This document shows positions 149 through 60,805 of a DNA stretch of 64,000 bases, in pieces (position 1 is the stretch's first letter; every line of letters starts with the position of its first letter). A model generated the notes under the pieces. The model had not been told where the DNA came from and made no database searches. It saw only the letters and a program-made list of their open reading frames with translations. The position numbers and the translations under genes were made by a program. The stretch is from an uncultured virus (IMG/VR IMGVR_UViG_3300050131_000019) (lineage: Duplodnaviria; Heunggongvirae; Uroviricota; Caudoviricetes). The stretch is from positions 1 to 64,000 of IMG/VR virus record IMGVR_UViG_3300050131_000019; one strand, written 5' to 3'.

Positions 149-177
149 AGAATACCACTATACCCTGCCCGTGTCAA
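149..177 (-). promoter_or_regulatory. Sigma70-like promoter overlapping the polymerase stop codon
   Basis: TTGACA-17 nt-TATTCT. Confidence 0.6.
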
Positions 178-3100
178 CCCTTAGTATAATATAAAGATTC
201 CATACCTTCCGCGCCTAGTAAAAAATCTGATGCCCAAGGAGGAGCCGTTGTCATACACTCTACTAGCTCCTTTACTCCGAGGGGGGAGTCTTCATCCACT
301 TCGGCCACGATTTCGTCGTGACAAGTTAGTACGATCTGGAAGCCCATATTTTTGGCTAGGTGCATTCCGTAAAACAGAATATCCCGGCAAAAAGCCTGCA
401 CGATGTTTTCGAAAGTCTTAGCCCCCCTAGTCTCTATACTCGTCCATTGGTGAGTGACTTGCGAGATGCCGTCCACACGGAGATCAGCTTTTCGGTAAGA
501 ATTACCCTTACGGGAGGTGGCGTCTACCCACGTTACCGAGGGGTTAATATAGTGCAGAGCGCGGCCCGAGGGTAGCCAGACACAGAGTACCCGGCCCTTC
601 ATTTCTAGGCGGATAGGCCCTAGTTCGGCGGTCGTATCGTTTTCCACGACTCTAGCGAAAGCCCGGTGGAGATCGTACCAGTACTGTTCTACCTCTCGGT
701 ATGTATTTCTGTAGACCTGTACCGCCTTTTCTGCATACTCTAAGGTAAGTTCAATACCCATATTTTCCGCGTAAGCAAGCAAGCCAGTCTTAACCGAGTT
801 ACCCTCTTCATCTGTAGTTTCTTCGCCCGCACTAAGTCCGTACCCGCAGTTATGAACAATCAGGGGACCCTTCTCCGTCAGGATCGTGAACCGACTCCTC
901 GGACCCGAGTTTAGAATGTCGAACGTAGGCACCCCGGCATTGGGACTGTTCTGCAATGATCCTTTCTGGAGAGAATCCTTTGTTGATTTTTCGGCAGACG
1001 TTTCCGCACTCCCGGTACTGGGGGCAGTATCTTTCCCAGAACTCAACGGCAGAAAGTTTTTCTCCCAGATAGTGGATGTAGCAAAGGTTTTCTTTATTCC
1101 TCCCATTAACTTTTGAGGTAACAAATCGAAGATTCCCTTTTTCATAATGGCCGTCATTATCTTCTCGGTCGATCTGGTACGCGGGCTTGTCATAGTTCTT
1201 AAGGGTAAGGCAGTGTCCGATGAAATCGTACACATCCTCAAATTTGCACTGAATCCCCCGTCCTCCGTAGCGATGAGCGGCAGAACCGACTCCCCGGCAG
1301 CGCGACAGAATCGCGTAGTACCTGTTCGCCAGCCGGTCAATAAGTTCTCTAGGTTCCGAAAATCTGACGTATACTCCGTTCTGGTCTTCCTGAACCTTTT
1401 TTCGGGCACAAGGGAGGCAACGACTTGTCTTACCCTTTTCAAGATTCTCCCTATTGACCAGTTTTTCGGAGCCGCAGACCCCGCATCGGCAAGGGTAACT
1501 GAGGTATTTTTTAACCTTCTGAGCGAGTCCGGTAGTAACCCACTCGCCAAATTTATAGCCGACCTCTCGTAGAGGCCACTTTGCGTCACTTCGCACGCTT
1601 CTTTCCACCCTTCTTCTGTAAGAATCCCGTGCTCCGGAGTAACATCTACTCGGAGCAGGTTGATAACTTTCTTGTCCCCCTGATACACACAACCATCGTG
1701 AGACACCCATTCACCGCCATCCCACAGCTTATCCTCTAAGGTAACGTTCACAATCTTCTTTACCCCGTGGTTGGTAAGGACCATAGTATCTTCACCGAAA
1801 CATCCGAGGGTAGGCGCTTTAGCGTTTGTCCTAGCGGTCTTATCCCCCGCCTTATACGTCTCCCACAACTCCTCGTAGGTAGCGTGACCATCCATTTGTG
1901 CTGCAAAAGCAATATAAGGGTCTCTCCCCTGACGAAACACTTCCAGAAGAGGTTCGCACTCTGTAACCCATCCGGCTCCACGAGCTTCGATAGCGGAGAG
2001 ATCGGCAATCACGAACTTCTTCCCCGGAGCCGCACACAAAATCGGGCGCAAGGCCGCACAAGCCACGTCTAGCGGGCTACTAAAATTTTTCTTGATTCCC
2101 TCATAATCCCCTGATTTTAATAGGGATAAAGCGAGATCGAATTTTCCGCCCACTTCCTTGGATGCCTTCACGAGATTCTGCACTTGCACCAGCCCGGAAG
2201 TCATGCGCCCGGTTCTAGCCGCCCCCATAAAATGGAACAATCCGCGAACCCTACCATCTGACATGATAGAAGCCCGGTATGCGTCCAGCTTACTAACCGA
2301 ACTTTTACTGAGTTGTAGCCTAAGTTCCAGAGCTTTCCGGCACTGTTCATTTAGATCACACTCCCCGTTCAAAGCCCGCTTGATAAAGGGCTTTCCGATA
2401 GACAGAAAAGTGTACCCGTTCTGTCTGGCATACGCCAGCACCTGAACCGGGGACTTGGGGTTCTTGATGCCTGTAAGTTCGAGAAACTGTTTGGTAAGAG
2501 CCGATTGCTCTTTTTCTACGACTATACTCGCCCCCTGTAGAAGCACCGAGTCCGTGTAGATTCCATAGTCGTTGATTTCTTCTGATAGCGCGAAGTTTTC
2601 ATATTCCCAGTCCGGAAGAGGAAAGTCCTTTAGCCGGTGCAGGATTTCCCGCATAGCTTCTACGTCCGTTTTGCAGTAATCACAGAAGCGGGAATACTCC
2701 TTAACATGGGTATCCCAGTCACGATAGGAAGTCGGCTCAATTCCGAAGAGGGTTAGCTCCCCGCCAAACCGAAGGGGCTTGCAGAAAAGATCGACCATGC
2801 TAACATCTTTTACAAAAAATTCGGTCAGCTTCTTGGACTTGATATCCAGAATCTTGCCCACTTTTTCCAGCTTACCGGGCATACTCATAGCCCGACTCAG
2901 GATCATCGGGTCAATAAATCTATCAACCGGAATATCAATATCAAAAAATCTTTTTATGGCAAGGCGTTCAAACTGACAATTGTGAGCGACGATTATTTGA
3001 AAAGGGTCCTGCAACCCCTGAAGTAAGTCTTCCGGGATAGGACCCTTGTGGCATTCCCATAGCTGTACGTCGGCATCCCCCCACGCATAAGCAAACATGA

Positions 3101-3194
3101 GGAGTTCGCAGCTAGGATGATCTATGTATTTGTATGCCCCAGTTGTCGAGATATCCAGTTCGTTCCGTGTTTCGAGGTCGATATGCAGAAGCAT
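174..3194 (-). CDS. Family A DNA polymerase (3'-5' exonuclease plus polymerase) containing an intein
   Basis: Exonuclease motifs HIDLET and AHNCQFE. Polymerase motifs ARTGR, motif A IADLSAIEAR, motif B RTNAKAPTLG/CGYG (split by the intein) and motif C CHDEIV. Confidence 0.95.
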   Translation of the reverse strand: MLLHIDLETRNELDISTTGAYKYIDHPSCELLMFAYAWGDADVQLWECHKGPIPEDLLQGLQDPFQIIVAHNCQFERLAIKRFFDIDIPVDRFIDPMILSRAMSMPGKLEKVGKILDIKSKKLTEFFVKDVSMVDLFCKPLRFGGELTLFGIEPTSYRDWDTHVKEYSRFCDYCKTDVEAMREILHRLKDFPLPDWEYENFALSEEINDYGIYTDSVLLQGASIVVEKEQSALTKQFLELTGIKNPKSPVQVLAYARQNGYTFLSIGKPFIKRALNGECDLNEQCRKALELRLQLSKSSVSKLDAYRASIMSDGRVRGLFHFMGAARTGRMTSGLVQVQNLVKASKEVGGKFDLALSLLKSGDYEGIKKNFSSPLDVACAALRPILCAAPGKKFVIADLSAIEARGAGWVTECEPLLEVFRQGRDPYIAFAAQMDGHATYEELWETYKAGDKTARTNAKAPTLGCFGEDTMVLTNHGVKKIVNVTLEDKLWDGGEWVSHDGCVYQGDKKVINLLRVDVTPEHGILTEEGWKEACEVTQSGLYERSAINLASGLLPDSLRRLKNTSVTLADAGSAAPKNWSIGRILKRVRQVVASLVPEKRFRKTRTEYTSDFRNLENLLTGWRTGTTRFCRAAGESVLPLIATEDGGFSANLRMCTISSDTALPLRTMTSPRTRSTEKIMTAIMKKGIFDLLPQKLMGGIKKTFATSTIWEKNFLPLSSGKDTAPSTGSAETSAEKSTKDSLQKGSLQNSPNAGVPTFDILNSGPRSRFTILTEKGPLIVHNCGYGLSAGEETTDEEGNSVKTGLLAYAENMGIELTLEYAEKAVQVYRNTYREVEQYWYDLHRAFARVVENDTTAELGPIRLEMKGRVLCVWLPSGRALHYINPSVTWVDATSRKGNSYRKADLRVDGISQVTHQWTSIETRGAKTFENIVQAFCRDILFYGMHLAKNMGFQIVLTCHDEIVAEVDEDSPLGVKELVECMTTAPPWASDFLLGAEGMESLYYTKG
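849..1802 (-). mobile_element. Intein (318 aa, polymerase residues 465-782) inserted in motif B
   Basis: Starts CFGEDTMV (block A), has TPEH (block B), ends TFDILNSGPRSRF...IVHN followed by extein Cys. Removing it restores KAPTLG-CGYG. Confidence 0.93.
850..1710 (-). CDS. HNH-type homing endonuclease nested out of frame inside the intein (true start probably a GTG near 1597-1609)
   Basis: Motifs KFGEW..CRCGVCG..RCLPC, RYYAILSRC, RYGGRGI and IDREDNDGHYEKGNLRF..N. Reading frame differs from the polymerase/intein frame. Confidence 0.85.
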   Translation of the reverse strand: MGVSRWLCVSGGQESYQPAPSRCYSGARDSYRRRVERSVRSDAKWPLREVGYKFGEWVTTGLAQKVKKYLSYPCRCGVCGSEKLVNRENLEKGKTSRCLPCARKKVQEDQNGVYVRFSEPRELIDRLANRYYAILSRCRGVGSAAHRYGGRGIQCKFEDVYDFIGHCLTLKNYDKPAYQIDREDNDGHYEKGNLRFVTSKVNGRNKENLCYIHYLGEKLSAVEFWERYCPQYRECGNVCRKINKGFSPERIIAEQSQCRGAYVRHSKLGSEESVHDPDGEGSPDCS

Positions 3195-3204
3195 TTTATC
3201 CTTT

Positions 3205-3278
3205 TGGTTCCGGGTCCACGAATCGAACGTAGGTTAGGAGGATCAAAACCTCCTGTCTTACCACTAAACGAACCCGGA
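3205..3278 (-). tRNA. trnQ: tRNA-Gln (anticodon TTG), CCA encoded
   Basis: Acceptor TCCGGGT/ACCCGGA plus A-CCA. Anticodon arm GGAGG-TTTTGAT-CCTCC. T-loop GTTCGATTC. D-loop AGTGGTA. Confidence 0.93.
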
Positions 3279-3281
3279 ATT

Positions 3282-3857
3282 TTATTCCTGTTCCACCTGG
3301 TCCCAGAAAGTCTTCAGATTTATCCGAATCTTCCCCGGATACCAGCAAACAGTGGGGGCGTTACGGATTGCCTCGTTCAGTTCTTCGATTTTAGTACATA
3401 CCTCGTCAGGGAGTTCTCCATCTTCCGGAAGATCGTCACACCAATTGTCATAGTCAATAGTGTGAAGTTTCCCCCGCGCACACTTCACTATTTGAACTTC
3501 TGCTTCTTCGTTCTCCCCTAAGTCGGCTTTCAAATCGGCCATCCAATCCAAAAGAGAATCTTCATCGAAGAAGTATGTATCATCATTATAGACGCACACC
3601 GGCTCAGACCCGTCCCAGTCTTCCACAGGAAGAGCATAGTACTTATCTGAGTCTAGCTTAGACTGGCAAGAATCACACCTAACATGGCCCTTTGAGTATA
3701 TTTTACCGCAAGGGCAGGTTCGGTGGGTACACCCCGCGTATCTGGCAATATTTTCGTCTTTCCCGTAAAACCTCCCGTCGCTGGCTACCCACCCGCTTAT
3801 GTCTGTTTTGAAGGTTGCAGCTTCCGGGCTATCATACATGATTATTTTCTCGGTCAT
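3282..3857 (-). CDS. Hypothetical protein with Cys cluster (CxCG..CxxC)
   Basis: Long ORF with ATGA overlap to the lysozyme stop and GGGAG Shine-Dalgarno (SD). Confidence 0.75.
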   Translation of the reverse strand: MTEKIIMYDSPEAATFKTDISGWVASDGRFYGKDENIARYAGCTHRTCPCGKIYSKGHVRCDSCQSKLDSDKYYALPVEDWDGSEPVCVYNDDTYFFDEDSLLDWMADLKADLGENEEAEVQIVKCARGKLHTIDYDNWCDDLPEDGELPDEVCTKIEELNEAIRNAPTVCWYPGKIRINLKTFWDQVEQE

Positions 3858-7604: not shown

Positions 7605-8009
7605 ATGTTCATATATCTCGCAACTTGTTCCGAAACCGGCAAATACTATGTCGGACAGACCATAAACACCGTGAGCTTTCGGTGGAAACAGCACGTATAC
7701 TCTTCTAAAAGCTATAGGTGTAATACCTTTCTGGGTAGAGCTATACGTAAATACGGAGAGGATAGTTTTAAGCTAGAAACTCTGTGCGAGTGTCCCGACT
7801 CGGAGAGCCTGAATCTCGCGGAGAAGTTTTTCATCTACTTCTTGGGGTCCAAGAAAAAGTCTCTAGGGTATAACCTTACAGAGGGCGGAGATAGTCTTGG
7901 GTCCTACTCGAAAGAACTGGCTACCAAAAAGAACGAGCAGAAGCTACAGGAAAAGAAGTGGTTAAACTACACTCAATTTAAGTATGACTTTAAGAGAAAA
8001 GAGGACTAA
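7605..8009 (+). CDS. GIY-YIG homing endonuclease-like protein
   Basis: IYLAT..YYVGQT..RWKQH..AIRKYG..GYNLTEGG. Confidence 0.85.
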   Translation: MFIYLATCSETGKYYVGQTINTVSFRWKQHVYSSKSYRCNTFLGRAIRKYGEDSFKLETLCECPDSESLNLAEKFFIYFLGSKKKSLGYNLTEGGDSLGSYSKELATKKNEQKLQEKKWLNYTQFKYDFKRKED

Positions 8010-25708: not shown

Positions 25709-26749
25709 AGTTCTACCGCTTGTCTGGGACCTATATGATAGAAGTCTGGACGGGTGCTGCCTGCATATCGTTCTGGACGACGGAAACGTAGATGATGCTT
25801 CTGTAAAGTTCTGTATGCGATACGCAGAGGAGATGGTCCACTGGGAGTGCCTATGTCTAGCTGAAACTTTGCTGCACATGAGTAAAACCCAAAGGACTCA
25901 GCTATCTAGCCGAGCCTACGAAAGGCAGCATCTGAGATACCACGGAGGAGCCTAATGGAAGAAACACGAAACAGTAAGCACTGGCTGGTAAGCCCACCAC
26001 CGCCCGGAATCCTGATCTCGGTGTTTGATACTCGGGATAATCGCGGGTGGCGCGTCATGTATCCGGAAGAAATTTCAGCCCGCCTCCCGGAGTATCTTTA
26101 CTGGAGGGTCACTGGAGTAGGAGAAGAAATGGATCACCCAGCCGTGCCTAATGCCGCTGCGTACTATATTCTCAAGGTCAAGGACTACGGGGATGTGGTC
26201 TTCTACGGTACTGAAGTTGAGGCGGAAGACCTAAAGATGACTTGGGAACTCCGGAGCAAGAGTAGCGTCTTCCTCAAGAAGGCTACTAAGAGTGATCCTA
26301 AACACAAGAAGCTGGTATCGGACGAGATCGAAGCTATCCGGTTGGATCGGTCGTTTGGAATCCAGATTCCCCCGGTTCAGACAGATGGGTGGTTCTAATG
26401 CTTACTGAGGAAAGACTCAAAGAAATTTTGGATTACAAGGGCCGCAATCTTGGGGTGTTTCCCAAGTGTTGTCCTTGGTCGATAGCTACCTACAAAGAAA
26501 TACTGTCTCTTGCCCAAGAGGTCTTCTGCTGGAGAAACATACAGGATTGGGAAGAGAAGTACGGGGGAACTAAATGAAATTCGGTAAAAGTTTTCAAGAC
26601 GGGGTACTAGAGAATCTCCTCTTCCACCAAGAGCAGGACGCCGTGGCCCACAACAAGAAGTGGGATAGGATAGCTTTCTGGGGATTTATCTTTGCATGGG
26701 CTATGCTTTTTGCTGGGGTAATATGGAGCGATCTAGCAAGAGGAGTCTT

Positions 26750-27082
26750 ATGAGTCAGTTACTGTTTTCTTTAACTTCGAAGGACTTTGTGTTTCAGACT
26801 TTTTGTACCGGGGGTAATGGAGGCCAGCATCGTAATGCTAAGCAGAACGGGGTTCGGTGTATACATCCTCCTTCTGGAGCGAGGGCGGAGCATAGGGACG
26901 GTCGGGACCAGCCTAAGAATAGACAGGAGGCATTTCGGAAGTGCTGCGAAACTCCGGAGTTCAAGGCTTGGCACCGGACGGAAGTTTTTCGGCGTCTTGG
27001 CAAGACAAAAGATATAGAACGGATTGTAGATGAGCAGATGGACTCTAAAAACATAAAGGTGGAATACTATGAGTCTTTATAA
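26750..27082 (+). CDS. Stand-alone GGQ (RF-1 domain) peptidyl-tRNA hydrolase-like protein
   Basis: TGGNGGQHRN..GVRCIHPPSG..RDQPKNR. SD GAGGAG before ATG at 26750. Confidence 0.88.
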   Translation: MSQLLFSLTSKDFVFQTFCTGGNGGQHRNAKQNGVRCIHPPSGARAEHRDGRDQPKNRQEAFRKCCETPEFKAWHRTEVFRRLGKTKDIERIVDEQMDSKNIKVEYYESL

Positions 27083-45925: not shown

Positions 45926-48093
45926 ATGGCCTATACTCCCGCAGTAAATACAGTTACCAGTGGTAACTTTCCTAACGCTTTGGCCGTTTACTATGAGCGT
46001 AAAGCAATTCCAAACCTTAAAGCAAGCACTCCGTTTCTGGGGGCAACAAAGCAGTGGCCTTTGCCGAGGCACTCCGGTAACGTGATTCAGTTCTTCTCCT
46101 ATAACCTCTTGGGCGCGAATGTCTCTCAGACCACCGAGGGTTTCGTGGGTTCTCCTGTTCCCGAGAGCGCAGTCAAGATTCAGGCGACAATCGGTGAACT
46201 TGCTGCTTAACAGCTAACTGGCCGATATAAAATTCCGCTAAATCGGTGAACATCTGTGGTATAATGGTGTTATGCCAACAGAAAATACCGAGCTAACTCA
46301 AATGAAAGATCACACAAAAGCGTATATGGCCGGAGTCCTCGACGGAGACGGTCATCTAGGAATTCAGAAACACGGGCAGTATAGTCCTAGTATACAGGTT
46401 TGTGGTGAGTCTAAATCGCTTATGGAATGGATCGTCCTTAACTTTGGGGGATCAATCCGCAAAGAAAAAATCAAGAGCGGTAAAGACTTCTACAAATGGA
46501 TACTCTACGGGAAGAATTCTCAAAAAGATTTCGTAGAAGGTATCACACCTTTTGTGTTCATAAAAAGATCACAAGCAGAGATTCTCCAAGAGTTTCTTAA
46601 TATCAATCGGAGTGACTACGATCCGGAAAAGAGAGAATCTTACTATCTAGCAATTAGGAAAGCTAGATCATTGAGCAGCGTAGAGACTGACATGCGGAAC
46701 AAACTAGACAATAAACTGGCTTGCGCTTATGCGGCTGGTCTGGTTGATACAGACGGACACATAAATTTATACACGGTTCCCTCGGGAAAGTCTAAAGGTA
46801 GCATACGAACAGGAATAGAAATCGTAAATATCTATAGACCTATTCTCGATGAGCTAGCAAGGCAGTTTGGGGGTCACGTAAGGAAAAGAACAGAAGACGG
46901 GTACAAGACTCGGTATCAGTGGTTCGTTACTGATATGAAATCCGAGGAAAAACTCCTTCTGGCGATGCTCCCTTATATGATTGTGAAGAGAGAAAAAGCA
47001 GAAAATCTTCTCAAGCACCTCCGAGAAAGACTTAGTTTGAAGATACAGCCCGAACTCATAGGTGACTATGAGAGTGTCCCAGTGGGAACGCTGAAGACCT
47101 AAACACGTTTGCAATACGCTGATTACACCAATAGCTCTGACCTGTTCTTGGATACGGCGATTGACGACAAGGGCGCACTTAGCTCTTTGGCCGAGGAAAT
47201 GAACTATCGCCTCGCCCTCACCCTGAATCTGTTGGTCTCCACGGCTGCGGATTCTCTGAATGGCATCGACGGTTCTGTGAATCAGCAGTTGGCAGTCGGT
47301 ACCTATCTTACCGCGTCGAACCTGCGTACCATCGCTCAGCAGCTTGAGTCGGTGAACGTTCGTCCGTTCGAAGCCAACACCTACGCCGGGGTTATCAATC
47401 CTCTGGTTGTGCATGATATCTATAATGACGCCAGCTTCAACGGCCTCACGGATATCATGAAGCGCCAGTCCGATTCTTCGAAGAAGTTGTTCGAAGGTCT
47501 GGATCGTGACGCCCCTCTGGAGTTCGCGGGTATTAAGTTCAAGAGCACCACAACCGCATCGGCTGTGACCATCTCTTCGAACATTTACTATCCCACGTAC
47601 ATCTTCGGTGACGATGCTCTTCTAAGTATCTTCCTCGGTCCTAATCCGGCTGACAAGAACAAGAAGAACTACTCACTGAATATCCAGATGGCTCCCGAAG
47701 GCGGCTCGGTCTCCGACCCGGCTCGCTTGATTGGTGAACTTGCTGCTTAAGCAGCTAATCGGCCAATCTAAAACTCAGCTATATCGGTGAACCTCTCCTA
47801 AAATTTTAGGAGACAATACCGAGGGAAGACTAGGGAAAGTACCTAAACCTAGAACCCGTAACGACTAATACGCTGGGCCTTCGAAAGAAGTGAAGATAGA
47901 GTCTGAGCTATACGGCGACGTATAGAGTGTCTCCGGGGTGATCCGGGGGTGGATTAAGTCCACGATGACCTGAAAAGGCATCTCCAAAACGCAACTGGGG
48001 TGGATTTCATATAACTGTAAGTTCGTGGTCACGCCTCCGCCCGGAGTAGTTATGAGGGCACGCAAGCTCCTGAGCCAGACGTCTTCAAGCTAA
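45926..48093 (+). CDS. Major capsid protein (N4-gp56-like), join(45926..46195,47112..47735,47998..48093), about 329 aa
   Basis: Splicing gives in-frame junctions QATIG|QYADY and PARLIG|GWISYN. An alternative 3' site at G47991 would add QL. Confidence 0.88.
46196..47111 (+). mobile_element. Group I intron 1 in the capsid gene (916 nt) carrying a LAGLIDADG ORF
   Basis: P1 ATCGGT/GCCGAT with U-G at the splice site. P3 TTCCGC/GCGGAA. P4 TCGGT/ACCGA. R element GTAGAGACTG, S element AAGATACAGCC. P9 CTCATAG-GTGA-CTATGAG. Terminal G. Confidence 0.9.
46272..47102 (+). CDS. Double-motif LAGLIDADG homing endonuclease
   Basis: YMAGVLDGDG and YAAGLVDTDG. Confidence 0.92.
   Translation: MPTENTELTQMKDHTKAYMAGVLDGDGHLGIQKHGQYSPSIQVCGESKSLMEWIVLNFGGSIRKEKIKSGKDFYKWILYGKNSQKDFVEGITPFVFIKRSQAEILQEFLNINRSDYDPEKRESYYLAIRKARSLSSVETDMRNKLDNKLACAYAAGLVDTDGHINLYTVPSGKSKGSIRTGIEIVNIYRPILDELARQFGGHVRKRTEDGYKTRYQWFVTDMKSEEKLLLAMLPYMIVKREKAENLLKHLRERLSLKIQPELIGDYESVPVGTLKT
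47736..47997 (+). mobile_element. Group I intron 2 in the capsid gene (262 nt, no ORF)
   Basis: P1 GATTGGT/GCCAATC. P3 CTCAGC/GCTGGG. R element GTAACGACTA, S element AAGATAGAGTCT. P9 CTATACG-GCGA-CGTATAG. Confidence 0.9.
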
Positions 48094-48263: not shown

Positions 48264-49016
48264 ATGTACGATATTTACGAATATACGAATCTAATTAATA
48301 ACAAGAAGTATGTCGGGCAGAGTATAGATAAAGATACCCGGAGACGGCAGCACTTATACGAGGCTAAAAGGGGTTCTACCTGTCCCTTTCATCGTGCCAT
48401 AAGAAAATACGGAATAGATAACTTCTCTTTTAGAATTATTGAATCTGTAGATACTCAAAAAGGCGCTGACGATCAAGAAGACTTTTGGATAAACGAACTA
48501 GACACGCGAAGCCGGGATCGAGGATATAATCTCAGGGGTGGGGGGATAGCAGGTCTCTTAGCTGAAGAGAGTAAGCAAAAAATCAGTAATTCTCTTACTG
48601 AGTACTACTCCGATGAAAAGAACCGCGAAACTATTAGGGATTCCTTGAAGAATTACTATGAGCAGAACCCGGATCGTGTAGAGAAGATACGGGAGGAGTC
48701 CAGAGAGAATATAAAGGAAAGAAAGAGAAATGACTTGGGTCAACTTCTTCCGTCTTCGGGTGTTCCCGTTCCCGAGAAGACTCCAGAGGAGAAAAAAGCT
48801 ATTAATAAAAGAAAAAGCGAAATGATGCTTTCCAAGTCTCCCGAAGAAAAGGCTCGGATCAGCAAGAAGTTAAGTGATGCCCAGAAAGCCAGATATGCTG
48901 CTATGACCCCGGAAGAAAAAGAAGCCTTTTGTAAAAGAAAACGAGAGATTTCAGTTGCATATCACGCCAAAAAGAAATCAGGAATCCAATGCACAGTAGC
49001 CCAAGAAAATTCGTAA
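48264..49016 (+). CDS. GIY-YIG homing endonuclease
   Basis: IYEYTN..KYVGQS..RRRQH..AIRKYG..GYNLRGGG, with NUMOD-like C-terminus. Confidence 0.88.
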   Translation: MYDIYEYTNLINNKKYVGQSIDKDTRRRQHLYEAKRGSTCPFHRAIRKYGIDNFSFRIIESVDTQKGADDQEDFWINELDTRSRDRGYNLRGGGIAGLLAEESKQKISNSLTEYYSDEKNRETIRDSLKNYYEQNPDRVEKIREESRENIKERKRNDLGQLLPSSGVPVPEKTPEEKKAINKRKSEMMLSKSPEEKARISKKLSDAQKARYAAMTPEEKEAFCKRKREISVAYHAKKKSGIQCTVAQENS

Positions 49017-51584: not shown

Positions 51585-52331
51585 ATGAGTAAAATTAAAG
51601 ATTTGACTAATCAAAAGTTCGGGAAGCTGACGGCAATAAAAAGAATAGGGGCTACGAAGCAGGGGGCTTCCCTGTGGTTGTGTAAATGCGACTGCGGGGA
51701 AACTTCCGAGGTTCGGGCAGCAAGCCTCCTTAACAAATCCACGCAGAGTTGTGGATGTTCTAAAGTAGAAAACGCCAAGAAGAGGATTCTTGACCTTACC
51801 GGACAAAAGTTTGGAAGACTCCTAGTAACAGGACCCACCGATAAACGAGTTACCGGAAGAATCTGTTGGGAATGCCTATGTGACTGTGGGAAAACAAAAG
51901 CAGTTATCTCTAACAACTTGGTACGAGGTATCGCTACGAGTTGCGGGTGCTATAATTTAGAACTTATACGAGGAAACAAATTTGCCTCCACTCTGGAGTC
52001 TGGGGTGAAATATCTTTTAGAAATATACAGAAGTAATGCTCAGACGAAAGACCGGAGCTTTTGCCTCTCTTTTGAGGAGTTTAAAAATTTAACCTCATCT
52101 CCGTGCCATTATTGTGGGTCTATGCCCTCAAAGGTGGCTAAAAGTAGAAAAGCCCGCATTCCATATACGTACAACGGGATAGACCGGAAAAACAACGATG
52201 TTGGGTACGAAATAGATAATTGTCTTCCCTGTTGTTCGTTCTGTAACCATGCTAAGCACATTTTATCCTATGAAGATTTCCTATCTTGGATTCAACGTTT
52301 AGTTCAATTTAACCTTCATCGAGGCAACTGA
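51585..52331 (+). CDS. HNH homing endonuclease with duplicated DLTxQKFG-CxCDCG domains
   Basis: Two DLT.QKFG.L..W.C.CDCG..SCGC repeats, then CHYCG..GIDRKNN..GY..N..CN. Confidence 0.88.
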   Translation: MSKIKDLTNQKFGKLTAIKRIGATKQGASLWLCKCDCGETSEVRAASLLNKSTQSCGCSKVENAKKRILDLTGQKFGRLLVTGPTDKRVTGRICWECLCDCGKTKAVISNNLVRGIATSCGCYNLELIRGNKFASTLESGVKYLLEIYRSNAQTKDRSFCLSFEEFKNLTSSPCHYCGSMPSKVAKSRKARIPYTYNGIDRKNNDVGYEIDNCLPCCSFCNHAKHILSYEDFLSWIQRLVQFNLHRGN

Positions 52332-59914: not shown

Positions 59915-60805
59915 ATGGAAAATATAGAACAAAAGCCGTACGGGATTATCTACTTTGCTTTGAACAAGTTGAATGGAAAGTGCTACGTGGGACAGTCCAT
60001 CCAAGCCGAAGGGAAAAGGTGGAAGCAGCATATATCCTCCAGTCGCCATAGGGGAAGTAAACTATATTTTCATAAAGCCATTCACCACTACGGACCCGAA
60101 AACTTCGAGTTTCGTACTATCCTATCCTGCCCCGATCAAGCGTCTCTAAACTCCGCTGAAACCTATTTTATAGAATTCTTCGGTTCTATAGACCCCAAAA
60201 TAGGATACAATAGTACCCTCGGAGGGGACGCGGAAGTTCCTAGCGAGCAGACCAAAAAGAACATGATTACTGCTTGGGCTAAGCGCCGGGGAGGGGATAT
60301 CCCGGATACAGAAACCCTGATTAGGGATTATAAGTCAGGGCTATCTTCCGTTAAGATTGCAAAAAAATACGGGATATCCAAGTTCTGTGTACTCCGTAGA
60401 TTTAAAGTGGTGGGGTTTGATACACGATCTAATTCTGAGTCTAAAAGACTGCCCGGAATACCGTCGCTAGGGGATGAGTATCTGGCAGGAAAAGACCTCG
60501 GGGTTCTGGCCGAAAAATACGGGGTAACTCCTTCGTGGGTGTGGGGTCAACTAAAACAGAGCAACGTGCCCCTGAGAACGGCTACGGCCTCCCGCACTCT
60601 CAATATGGAGAAAACCGGAGAATTAAGTACACTACCCTCCCCCGAAGATTTGGCAGAAGAATACCTATCTGGAGTATCTTCCGTAAAGCTTTCGAAGAAG
60701 TACAATACAACTAAAACTAGGATATTAGCCTACCTCATCAAGAGTGGAATTACCCTTCGGACTAAATCCGAGGCTTGGGTAGGGCGAAAACAAAGCAAAA
60801 CATAA
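59915..60805 (+). CDS. GIY-YIG homing endonuclease with three HTH-like repeats
   Basis: GIIYFA..CYVGQS..RWKQH..GYNSTLGG, repeated Y.SG.S..K..KKY. Confidence 0.88.
   Translation: MENIEQKPYGIIYFALNKLNGKCYVGQSIQAEGKRWKQHISSSRHRGSKLYFHKAIHHYGPENFEFRTILSCPDQASLNSAETYFIEFFGSIDPKIGYNSTLGGDAEVPSEQTKKNMITAWAKRRGGDIPDTETLIRDYKSGLSSVKIAKKYGISKFCVLRRFKVVGFDTRSNSESKRLPGIPSLGDEYLAGKDLGVLAEKYGVTPSWVWGQLKQSNVPLRTATASRTLNMEKTGELSTLPSPEDLAEEYLSGVSSVKLSKKYNTTKTRILAYLIKSGITLRTKSEAWVGRKQSKT

Follow-up and report, generated by a model that had tools for sequence, protein, structure and literature searches.

An HNH-like nuclease gene lies in another reading frame inside the intein of a phage family A DNA polymerase

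The DNA analysed here, called the window throughout, is a stretch of 64,000 nucleotides and forms the first part of the 77,775-base genome (48.9% G+C) of an uncultured tailed phage (IMG/VR record IMGVR_UViG_3300050131_000019). Near its beginning, in a region where every gene is encoded on the minus strand, lies the gene for a family A DNA polymerase (matching Pfam DNA_pol_A at 8e-09 and the DNA polymerase family phrog_17 at 6.8e-87). The gene carries an intein in polymerase motif B, and a second open reading frame (ORF), on the same strand and in a different frame, lies inside the intein and encodes a predicted nuclease (Table 1). An earlier note, made from the sequence alone, had read this arrangement as a dual-coding intein, in which the homing endonuclease is in a different frame from the intein that carries it. 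The N-extein is 60-73% identical to its closest relatives.

Table 1. Features of the polymerase locus in window coordinates (pLDDT, predicted local distance difference test score; nt, nucleotides)
Feature	Coordinates	Strand	Description
Family A DNA polymerase gene	174..3194	minus	1006 codons and a stop; single open frame through the intein
N-extein	1803..3194	minus	Residues 1-464, ending ..NAKAPTLG in polymerase motif B
Class 1 intein	849..1802	minus	Polymerase residues 465-782, 318 residues, Cys1 ... His-Asn; Cys+1 at 846-848
Intein N-terminal splicing (Hint) part	1503..1802	minus	Polymerase frame; model residues 11-105, pLDDT 94-98, aligns to intein structures
Host-frame "shadow" linker	948..1502	minus	185 codons, stop-free, predicted disordered, without amino-acid selection; pLDDT 36-57
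Intein C-terminal splicing part	849..947	minus	Blocks F and G (VPTFDIL..GPRSRF..LIVHN); model residues 300-330, pLDDT 91-95
C-extein	177..848	minus	CGYGLSAGEE... to the polymerase end; phrog_7766 and phrog_10285 (DNA polymerase) match residues 809-1005
Overlapping nuclease ORF	850..1710	minus	-1 frame (offset +2 from the polymerase), 286 codons from ATG 1710, TAA at 850-852
Confidently folded nuclease part	937..1566	minus	Residues 11-220 from GTG 1596; zinc motif CxC..CxxC and motif IDREDNDGHYEKGNLRFVTSKVNGRN
Candidate GTG start of the nuclease	1594..1596	minus	7 nt after GGTGGA; alternatives ATG 1708-1710 and GTG 1606-1608; presumed choice

The intein begins with CFGEDTMVLT (Cys465), holds a block B with the sequence TPEH and ends in ..GPRSRFTILTEKGPLIVHN, followed by a Cys (CGYG); its C-terminus, LIVHN/CGYG (the slash marks the intein border), gives the His-Asn pair with Cys at +1. 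In an alignment of 38 inteins, Cys1, the Thr and His of block B (T65 and H68), the Asp of block F (D305) and the terminal Asn (N328) are invariant. This alignment was used to model the host frame with AlphaFold2, with 10 flanking residues on each side. The model is confident at residues 11-105 and 300-330 (pLDDT 91-98), and most of residues 111-295 fall below a pLDDT of 50 (block means 36-57). When compared with 48,161 PDB representatives (VIA-align), its 31 top-ranking matches were all inteins or Hint domains (Z 14.6-7.0), the best being NrdJ-1 (8ubs, Z 14.6, root-mean-square deviation (rmsd) 2.4, 117 aligned residues), gp41-1 (6riz, Z 13.5) and NpuDnaB (4o1r, Z 13.3). These three alignments cover 112-118 residues each and reach both ends of the intein model. 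A search of PDB chains with the host-frame sequence gave no match at E <= 1.

Cys1, TPEH, LIVHN/C and the predicted Hint fold confirm the N- and C-terminal splicing blocks that the earlier note had placed at 849..1802. With the Thr-x-x-His of block B, the His-Asn followed by Cys and the precise in-frame insertion, the element has the features of a class 1 intein. The host gene is not divided into two ORFs, as it is in fractured genes with split inteins, since a single 1006-codon ORF crosses the intein. We infer a working intein, whose predicted Hint parts would assemble around a disordered linker and splice. In the polymerase frame the middle of the intein is rich in S, T, R, K and L (S 10.8% and T 12.4%, compared with 5.5% and 5.4% in the exteins), and no endonuclease profile in Pfam or PHROGs matches it; the only row labelled 'endonuclease' in this frame (phrog_93) falls on the N-terminal splicing part, at residues 483-537. 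The earlier description of this middle as S/T/R/L/K-rich and devoid of endonuclease motifs therefore holds, both by composition and by the Pfam and PHROG searches.

The overlapping ORF closes within the last two codons of the intein. Its TAA (852..850) takes its T from the end of the His codon and both A's from the beginning of the Asn codon (caT AAc); the earlier note had said so, and the sequence bears it out. The ORF was modelled from GTG 1596 with 68 sequences (mean pLDDT 87.3, folded at residues 11-220). The model comprises an N-terminal barrel and a zinc-ribbon module followed by a catalytic part; model confidence is low for the C-terminal 28 residues, where the ORF runs over intein blocks F and G. 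The predicted nuclease fold ends at 937, almost exactly at the start (947) of the C-terminal Hint part, and the two confident folds share only about 1503-1566. On these models, true double constraint is confined to about 21 codons at the N-terminal overlap.

The motif of the nuclease family reads D143 R144 .. G149. Y151 E152. G154 N155 .. N167. R144 is invariant in the 68 sequences, as are Y151, E152 and N155, and N167 is nearly so; in the model the motif is surrounded by two strands (140-144 and 156-160) and a helix (161-165). The ORF matches three PHROGs labelled HNH endonuclease (phrog_374, 2e-21; phrog_3377, 3.6e-16; phrog_2081, 7.4e-06). Several results weigh against an assignment to the HNH endonucleases. 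The ORF has no match to a Pfam or NCBIfam model, and none of the 68 family members is significant to any Pfam HNH family, with one reaching HNH_3 at E 0.081. The HNH site usually has an Asp/His-His pair at the end of strand 1, in which the His is the general base; in this family the position of that His holds the invariant Arg (D143-R144), so the canonical His is missing. The best structural match in the PDB is the HNH restriction enzyme PacI (3m7k), with a Z of only 5.7 (rmsd 3.3, 85 residues), a weak score and low enough for chance arrangements to be common. PacI, too, is not known to use the customary His as its general base; this would fit, as a lead rather than a test. A Foldseek search of the PDB with the nuclease model gave nothing at E <= 0.001, and a search of PDB chains with the nuclease-frame sequence gave no match at E <= 1. 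In the ESM Atlas, residues 70-222 found unnamed viral clusters only. Because of the missing Pfam and NCBIfam matches, the weak match to PacI and the absent His, we call the protein HNH-like only: HNH membership is not established, and its site may be a variant one. The open frame that the earlier note had reported at 850..1710 is present, while the recognisable HNH endonuclease it was said to encode appears in PHROG labels and not in Pfam, in NCBIfam or in the canonical His. A kinship of the family with the other HNH gene of the window (46272-47102) was considered and rejected (profile comparison probability 0.2%).

The same layout is found in other phages. A tblastn search of phage records with the nuclease ORF returned 338 records, three of which were looked at (Pseudomonas phage MR14, Streptococcus phage Javan255 and Vibrio phage 97.13). 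In all three, the nuclease match lies out of frame inside a polymerase ORF that has no stop across a nonsense-looking middle flanked by the same intein blocks. At the DNA level, a search with the polymerase gene against 50,697 phage records gave no match. Viral contigs were scanned for the pattern of four aligned nuclease ORFs, which yielded 80 loci, and at 40 of these the nuclease open stretch (189-324 codons) lies within a same-strand open stretch of 427-1321 codons in another frame. The earlier note had named homologs carrying the HNH in frame as the case that would speak against it; such homologs were sought, and at none of the 80 loci does the nuclease share its frame with a long ORF (its frame is open for at most 362 codons, in a stretch at a contig end).

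Most of the 40 host ORFs (34) match DNA_pol_A (E <= 0.001), with matches that usually end around profile positions 195-220; three others are superfamily 2 helicases, one is sigma-70-like and two have no match. The intein borders Cys1 ... (His, Ser or Ala)-Asn followed by Cys or Ser are present in 42 of the 44 nested loci, that is, in 38 viral contigs, the three isolate phages and the window, and the inteins of the nested loci are 258-332 residues long. The sigma-70-like host ORF (L077, 427 residues) has no intein motifs, was taken as a chance overlap and was dropped from the intein counts, and a break in the host frame kept L057 out of the border counts. The nested loci form two frame classes: the host frame is nuclease +1 in 23 loci, including the window (class 1), and nuclease +2 in 21 (class 2).

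Polymerase motif B is the usual position of the composite of intein and nuclease, which was also seen at other sites, namely polymerase motif A (L063, 2679-3455; ..ADASQIE/C), a later polymerase site (L026, 2756-3619; ..LLEIS/C...HN/CQSMTRD), three helicases (L047, L055 and L074) and a host ORF without a Pfam match (L045). L057, on a provirus-derived contig, is 95.6% identical to L072, and the two nucleases are 98% identical. Its host frame is broken inside the N-terminal part of the intein (2700-3000, with frame 2 open to 2748 and frame 1 open from 2987), which may mean that the locus is a pseudogene or has a fractured, split intein, or that its sequence contains an error.

Fusions of the nuclease to an intein in a single frame were looked for among longer proteins. 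A single-sequence search found none, and a profile search gave 405 long proteins, of which the best 120 hold tandem nuclease/zinc-ribbon repeats, with a Hint N or C profile in 0 of these 120. The bit scores of 250-500 obtained there with a 248-residue profile are due to the tandem repeats. Elsewhere, too, the zinc-ribbon module occurs in many repeats in long proteins: P0001 and P0004 hold tandem copies of the entire nuclease unit (P0113 is also listed), and in P0110 about 20 zinc-ribbon modules are fused to a helicase.

A related pair of genes is present in the Hamiltonella phage APSE-1 (NC_000935). Its polymerase P45 has an intein of the same family (CLAKGTLVLT..WDGIEWV..TADH....VYDLINCGPRNRF..LIVHN/C), and P46, annotated as 'HNH endonuclease', is nested on the same strand and out of frame. 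P46 is 28% identical to the window nuclease ORF over 101 residues (E = 5e-8). The APSE-1 system differs in that the insertion is at another polymerase site (..YGGKS/CENICQAAARD) and in that annotated P46 has only 140 residues and lacks the zinc-ribbon module.

The openness of both frames exceeds chance. In the window, the third frame of the nuclease stretch has 20 stops in 248 codons. Forty free-standing relatives of the nuclease have 4.14 stops per 100 codons in the +1 frame and 7.09 in the +2 frame, with a minimum of 1 and 2 stops, respectively (a count that keeps four of the 40 with stops in the nuclease frame itself). The 44 nested loci have no host-frame stop in 7914 codons, and their third frame has 5.2-5.8 stops per 100 codons. 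When synonymous codons of the window nuclease ORF are permuted, 2.9 host-frame stops arise on average and none in 322 of 20000 trials, a conservative control because the codon usage is already shaped by stop avoidance. Host-frame stops can begin only at nuclease codons that end in TA or TG; such codons make up 8 of the 248 in the window nuclease ORF, compared with 93 of 688 in the exteins (p = 1.2e-6), and from GTG 1596 the ORF contains zero Met. Stop counts, permutation and codon depletion thus agree with the earlier proposal that the shadow frame has been purged of stops.

Nucleotide differences between nested loci follow the periodicity of the nuclease frame in both classes, with position 3 far above positions 1 and 2 (0.28/0.22/0.56 in class 1 and 0.32/0.24/0.58 in class 2, for pairs of 60-90% amino-acid identity). 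The ratio of nonsynonymous to synonymous substitution rates (dN/dS) was computed by the Nei-Gojobori method (NG86) for 14 pairs of nested loci. It is 0.11-0.28 in the nuclease frame (six pairs with unsaturated dS); for the host frame it is 1.1-2.3, like the 1.3-2.4 of the third frame. Given this periodicity and the values for each frame, amino-acid selection in the intein middle is confined to the nuclease frame; the host frame, kept open and no more, evolves as non-coding DNA would. It weighs against carrying this result over to the phage in question that the window intein has no close DNA relative except identical copies, so that the selection measures are those of the family and not specific to the window. 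The earlier note had proposed testing homologs for the openness of both frames and for dN/dS in each; both are open in the 44 nested loci, with selection in the nuclease frame alone. Its term dual-coding, taken in the strong sense, fits the overlaps with the splicing parts alone. It does not extend to two functional proteins in the middle, where the host frame is non-coding-like and predicted to be disordered.

An artefact, in which two compensating indels have shifted an in-frame endonuclease domain of the intein, has a negligible probability. Over the 3021 bases of the gene, two viral contigs that come from different metagenomes have 100% identity (one of them is possibly the window's own source). 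From window:700-1950, 98-100% of the sampled words are present in 20 runs from 17 studies, all of them peat metagenomes, and across the stretch no indel or deviating letter appears in contigs from four runs, each of a different study, at a depth of up to 218. Together these observations exclude a sequencing error and supply the read support for the absence of indels that the earlier note had asked to be checked. An artefact is also at odds with the occurrence of the same out-of-frame layout in three isolate phages, APSE-1 and 38 viral contigs, with the 80 loci at which the nuclease is never in frame within a long ORF, and with the probability of about 3e-4 that a 185-codon host frame would be open by chance at the stop rates of the free-standing relatives.

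We consider it highly probable that the locus is a composite mobile element, in which a working class 1 intein in motif B is combined with a separate homing-endonuclease gene in the -1 frame that is translated independently. The polymerase would be translated straight through the intein, whose N- and C-terminal Hint parts would fold around a disordered linker of about 185 residues, the stop-free shadow of the nuclease gene. The intein would then splice out and restore ..AKAPTLG-CGYGL.... The nuclease, predicted to combine the barrel and zinc-ribbon DNA-binding module with a beta-beta-alpha-type core (DR..Y E.GN..N), would be made separately by internal initiation on the polymerase mRNA, from GTG 1596 or ATG 1710. 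Its putative activity is cleavage and its putative target the intein-less polymerase alleles, which it would presumably cut, with repair copying the entire element in.

Signals for such internal initiation were assessed across the family as duplex energies of Shine-Dalgarno (SD) sites before ATG, GTG and TTG codons. In 43 nested loci, the best SD energy per locus averages -8.9 kcal/mol in the nuclease frame, compared with -5.7 and -5.0 kcal/mol for the two remaining frames over that interval (Wilcoxon p = 3e-6 and 4e-7), a per-locus comparison in which the nuclease frame is favoured by its number of candidates (6.4 per locus, against 5.6 and 3.8). The fraction test is free of this advantage: an SD energy <= -10 is found at 6.1% of the nuclease-frame start codons and at 1.7% and 1.9% of those elsewhere (Fisher p = 0.003). 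At 31 of 44 loci the best SD candidate ranks among the top 5% of the background for that locus. A conserved start within the intein motif WDGxEW was also considered and rejected as a general rule. An ATG formed by xxA-TGG is present in 12 of 22 class-1 loci, and one formed by GAT-GGx in 14 of 20 class-2 loci, eight of which have an immediate stop; the use of Asp codons is alike in the two frame classes.

In the window, GTG 1608 and GTG 1596 are preceded by purine-rich runs, in agreement with the earlier note. The local signals nevertheless count against independent translation in this phage: the SD duplex energies are -7.0 at GTG 1596, -6.4 at ATG 1710 and -3.6 at GTG 1608, compared with a 5th-percentile background of -8.4, a promoter scan of 700-3400 gives one site (shuffled mean 2.7) and none upstream within the gene, and no RNA run is listed among the runs with window:700-1950. 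These weak SD-like sites would suit a programmed -1 frameshift, which would yield a fusion of N-extein, N-terminal intein part and nuclease ending at the TAA of the His-Asn codons. The host frame does contain two -1 slippery heptamers on the minus strand, A_AAT_TTG (1548-1554) and A_AAA_AAT (1506-1512), which lie immediately ahead of the nuclease fold or inside its first part. Slippery X_XXY_YYZ heptamers are, however, found in only 4 of 22 class-1 loci and at non-homologous places, and half of the family is in the other frame offset and would need a +1 shift. The heptamer at 1554 stems from the Lys-Phe codons of the nuclease G.KFG motif, where the family consensus is Arg-Phe, and SD-like sites are enriched before the nuclease-frame start codons. 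We regard the frameshift as improbable. Because of the SD enrichment at nuclease-frame starts and the rarity of the heptamers, which lie at unrelated places, internal initiation appears to be the best general mechanism across the family. The expression uncoupled from splicing that the earlier note had proposed stands, on the family-wide SD enrichment, as the most likely mode; in this phage the nuclease would start at GTG 1596 or ATG 1710.

The weak translation signals and the lack of an RNA run among the runs that contain the stretch would also be compatible with a silent relic, that is, an element that is in effect a mini-intein with a junk linker, inherited vertically, with a nuclease that is unmade or inactive in this phage. 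In the same direction point the long branch of the window nuclease (1.04, with at most 39% identity to any relative) and its Lys at the position where at least 90% of the family has Pro153. A relic would soon gain stops in the nuclease frame, because only its own function protects that frame, whereas the ORF is intact over 286 codons. It has kept all of the invariant R144, G149, Y151, E152, G154 and N155 as well as the zinc cysteines, and its predicted fold is confident (pLDDT 87.3). The depletion of NTA and NTG codons speaks for a long coexistence of two open frames. A silent relic is thus unlikely.

The distribution of the element is the one that homing would give, with a sporadic presence among close relatives of the polymerase. 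Among the 120 nearest polymerases listed by N-extein, 105 have 640-760 residues, the intein-less length, and seven have about 1000 residues and both Hint parts. The closest relatives are 687-692 residues long, and 1006 minus 318 is 688. Junctions were inspected in the 30 nearest polymerases, and all of those with a detected motif B read unbroken (RTN)AK(S/A/P)PTLGCGYGL. Three close relatives of the polymerase (P0136, 557 amino acids; P0195, 575; P0158, 730) have the Hint N-part without the Hint C-part, P0136 stopping just past the N-part; they may represent split or decayed forms of this element.

The history of the nuclease was examined with a maximum-likelihood tree of 68 sequences, from which a few short matches, the three isolate phages, L020 (identical to Javan255) and four loci with stops in frame had been excluded. 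The 18 class-2 nested nucleases form one clade (support 100/99) and 29 of the 30 free-standing nucleases a separate one (100/99); the class-1 nested nucleases fall into two or three groups, in which the window pairs weakly with L028. The tree indicates that the nested nucleases are old lineages with a stable frame and not recent captures from the free-standing pool, and therefore any invasion of a mini-intein would be ancient. The earlier note had suggested that a free-standing HNH gene invaded a mini-intein out of frame. An ancient invasion is a plausible origin for the element, and the separation of 29 of the 30 free-standing nucleases argues against a recent one in this phage.

Other genes of this tailed phage include those for terminase, portal and endolysin. 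The genome is unusually rich in free-standing homing endonuclease genes: three of the GIY-YIG type (7605-8009, 48264-49016 and 59915-60805, all on the plus strand) and one HNH gene (phrog_5046; 46272-47102, plus), which are scattered among the structural genes, and one zinc-ribbon paralogue. The paralogue, a free-standing gene of 248 residues (51585-52331, plus), matches phrog_374 (7e-43) as well as endonuclease VII and HNH PHROGs. It has in common with the nested nuclease an N-terminal G.KFG..V / CxCxCG barrel/zinc-ribbon module (hhalign probability 97.6%, E = 3.4e-12), and the C-terminal parts of the two differ. A tRNA-Gln gene (anticodon TTG; 3205-3278, minus) is immediately upstream of the polymerase start, and an ORF of 128 residues (26696-27082, plus) matches a PHROG labelled 'RF-1 domain peptide chain release factor' (phrog_3122, 3.7e-21).

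Inteins with an out-of-frame endonuclease have been published in 2025-26. Gosselin, Arsenault and Gogarten (bioRxiv 10.1101/2025.01.02.630785) describe non-canonical inteins of actinobacteriophages with an endonuclease VII-like homing endonuclease in 'frame 3' of the same strand. As far as the accessible text of that preprint goes, these inteins resemble the present ones in that the host frame is unstructured in the endonuclease region, the overlapping same-strand ORF is the nuclease and the distribution is sporadic, and the origin proposed for them is the invasion of an intein by a free-standing endonuclease gene. They differ in the nuclease, which is endonuclease VII-like there and belongs to the HNH-like DR..Y..N..N family in the window; in that text, the HNH endonucleases of the survey are in frame only. 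Its Figure 3E gives 'DNA polymerase' as one of four host protein types, and the only polymerase host named there is the DNA polymerase III alpha subunit. The host in the window is instead motif B of a family A polymerase (with helicases in relatives), and the present family occurs at dozens of environmental loci, in two frame classes. Phillips, DeSimone and Gogarten (bioRxiv 10.64898/2026.09.14.751524) report a cyanobacterial dnaX intein with an out-of-frame LAGLIDADG homing endonuclease in the +2 ORF, from which the window differs by its phage family A polymerase host and its HNH-like nuclease.

A 'hidden' out-of-frame HNH has also been described in the ShiLan domain, which is inserted in the DNA methylase of a mycobacteriophage (Arsenault, Gosselin and Gogarten, Genes 2025, PMC11855218). 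The insertion likewise has an HNH-type ORF in another frame and adds no stop to the host, and its TAA lies within the last four bases (TAAC), comparable to caT AAc in the window; a GTG start shortly after the beginning of the insertion was proposed. No splicing domains were detected in ShiLan and the insert is thought to be retained in the methylase, whereas the flanks in the window are those of a canonical intein. Any intein that ends in CAT-AAY (His-Asn) would give a -1-frame TAA at its last bases, which raises the question of whether the ShiLan insertion may be a decayed intein of this kind. Fractured genes, in which split inteins flank a free-standing endonuclease gene (Dassa et al. 2009, PMC2677866), are similar in having an endonuclease gene of the free-standing type between the intein parts of a replication gene. 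In these, the host gene is in two ORFs and trans-spliced, in contrast to the continuous host frame of the window.

The locus shares with the overlapping-endonuclease inteins of the 2025-26 works the same-strand ORF between the splicing blocks in another frame, the stop-free host frame, purifying selection on the endonuclease (at the level of the family) and sporadic presence. The texts of these works, supplements aside, do not describe this nuclease family in family A polymerase inteins. Within that scope, the principle has been known since 2025-26, and what is new relative to those works is the kind of nuclease, its host site, the occurrence of two frame classes and the breadth. Because the layout has been published, and was already present in the APSE-1 annotation (P45/P46), the window is a further example of it, whose value is in the breadth and not in the principle.

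Tentatively, and with more doubt than confidence, we suggest that the out-of-frame layout is the standard and stable architecture for this HNH-like family, and no step toward an in-frame domain, with an uncoupled dosage of the nuclease being what is selected. This suggestion comes from the absence of in-frame fusions from the 80 loci and from the best 120 long relatives, from the two old frame classes that have codiverged with their inteins, and from the movement of the composite among motif B, further sites in polymerases, and helicases. If it is true, the family would be the most widespread known class of overlapping-gene inteins, with a beta-beta-alpha nuclease that uses Arg/Tyr for the catalytic His. 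The locus itself shows that two genes of a mobile element can share one DNA by a minimal rule, under which one frame is selected and the other need only stay free of stops because protein splicing would discard it; this rule accounts for annotation pipelines missing such nucleases or calling the intein middle 'unknown'. The finding points to a nuclease family not covered by Pfam or NCBIfam, and the loci in polymerases and helicases, in two frame classes, would provide a large natural set for tests of the entry of homing endonucleases into inteins and of the origin of split inteins.

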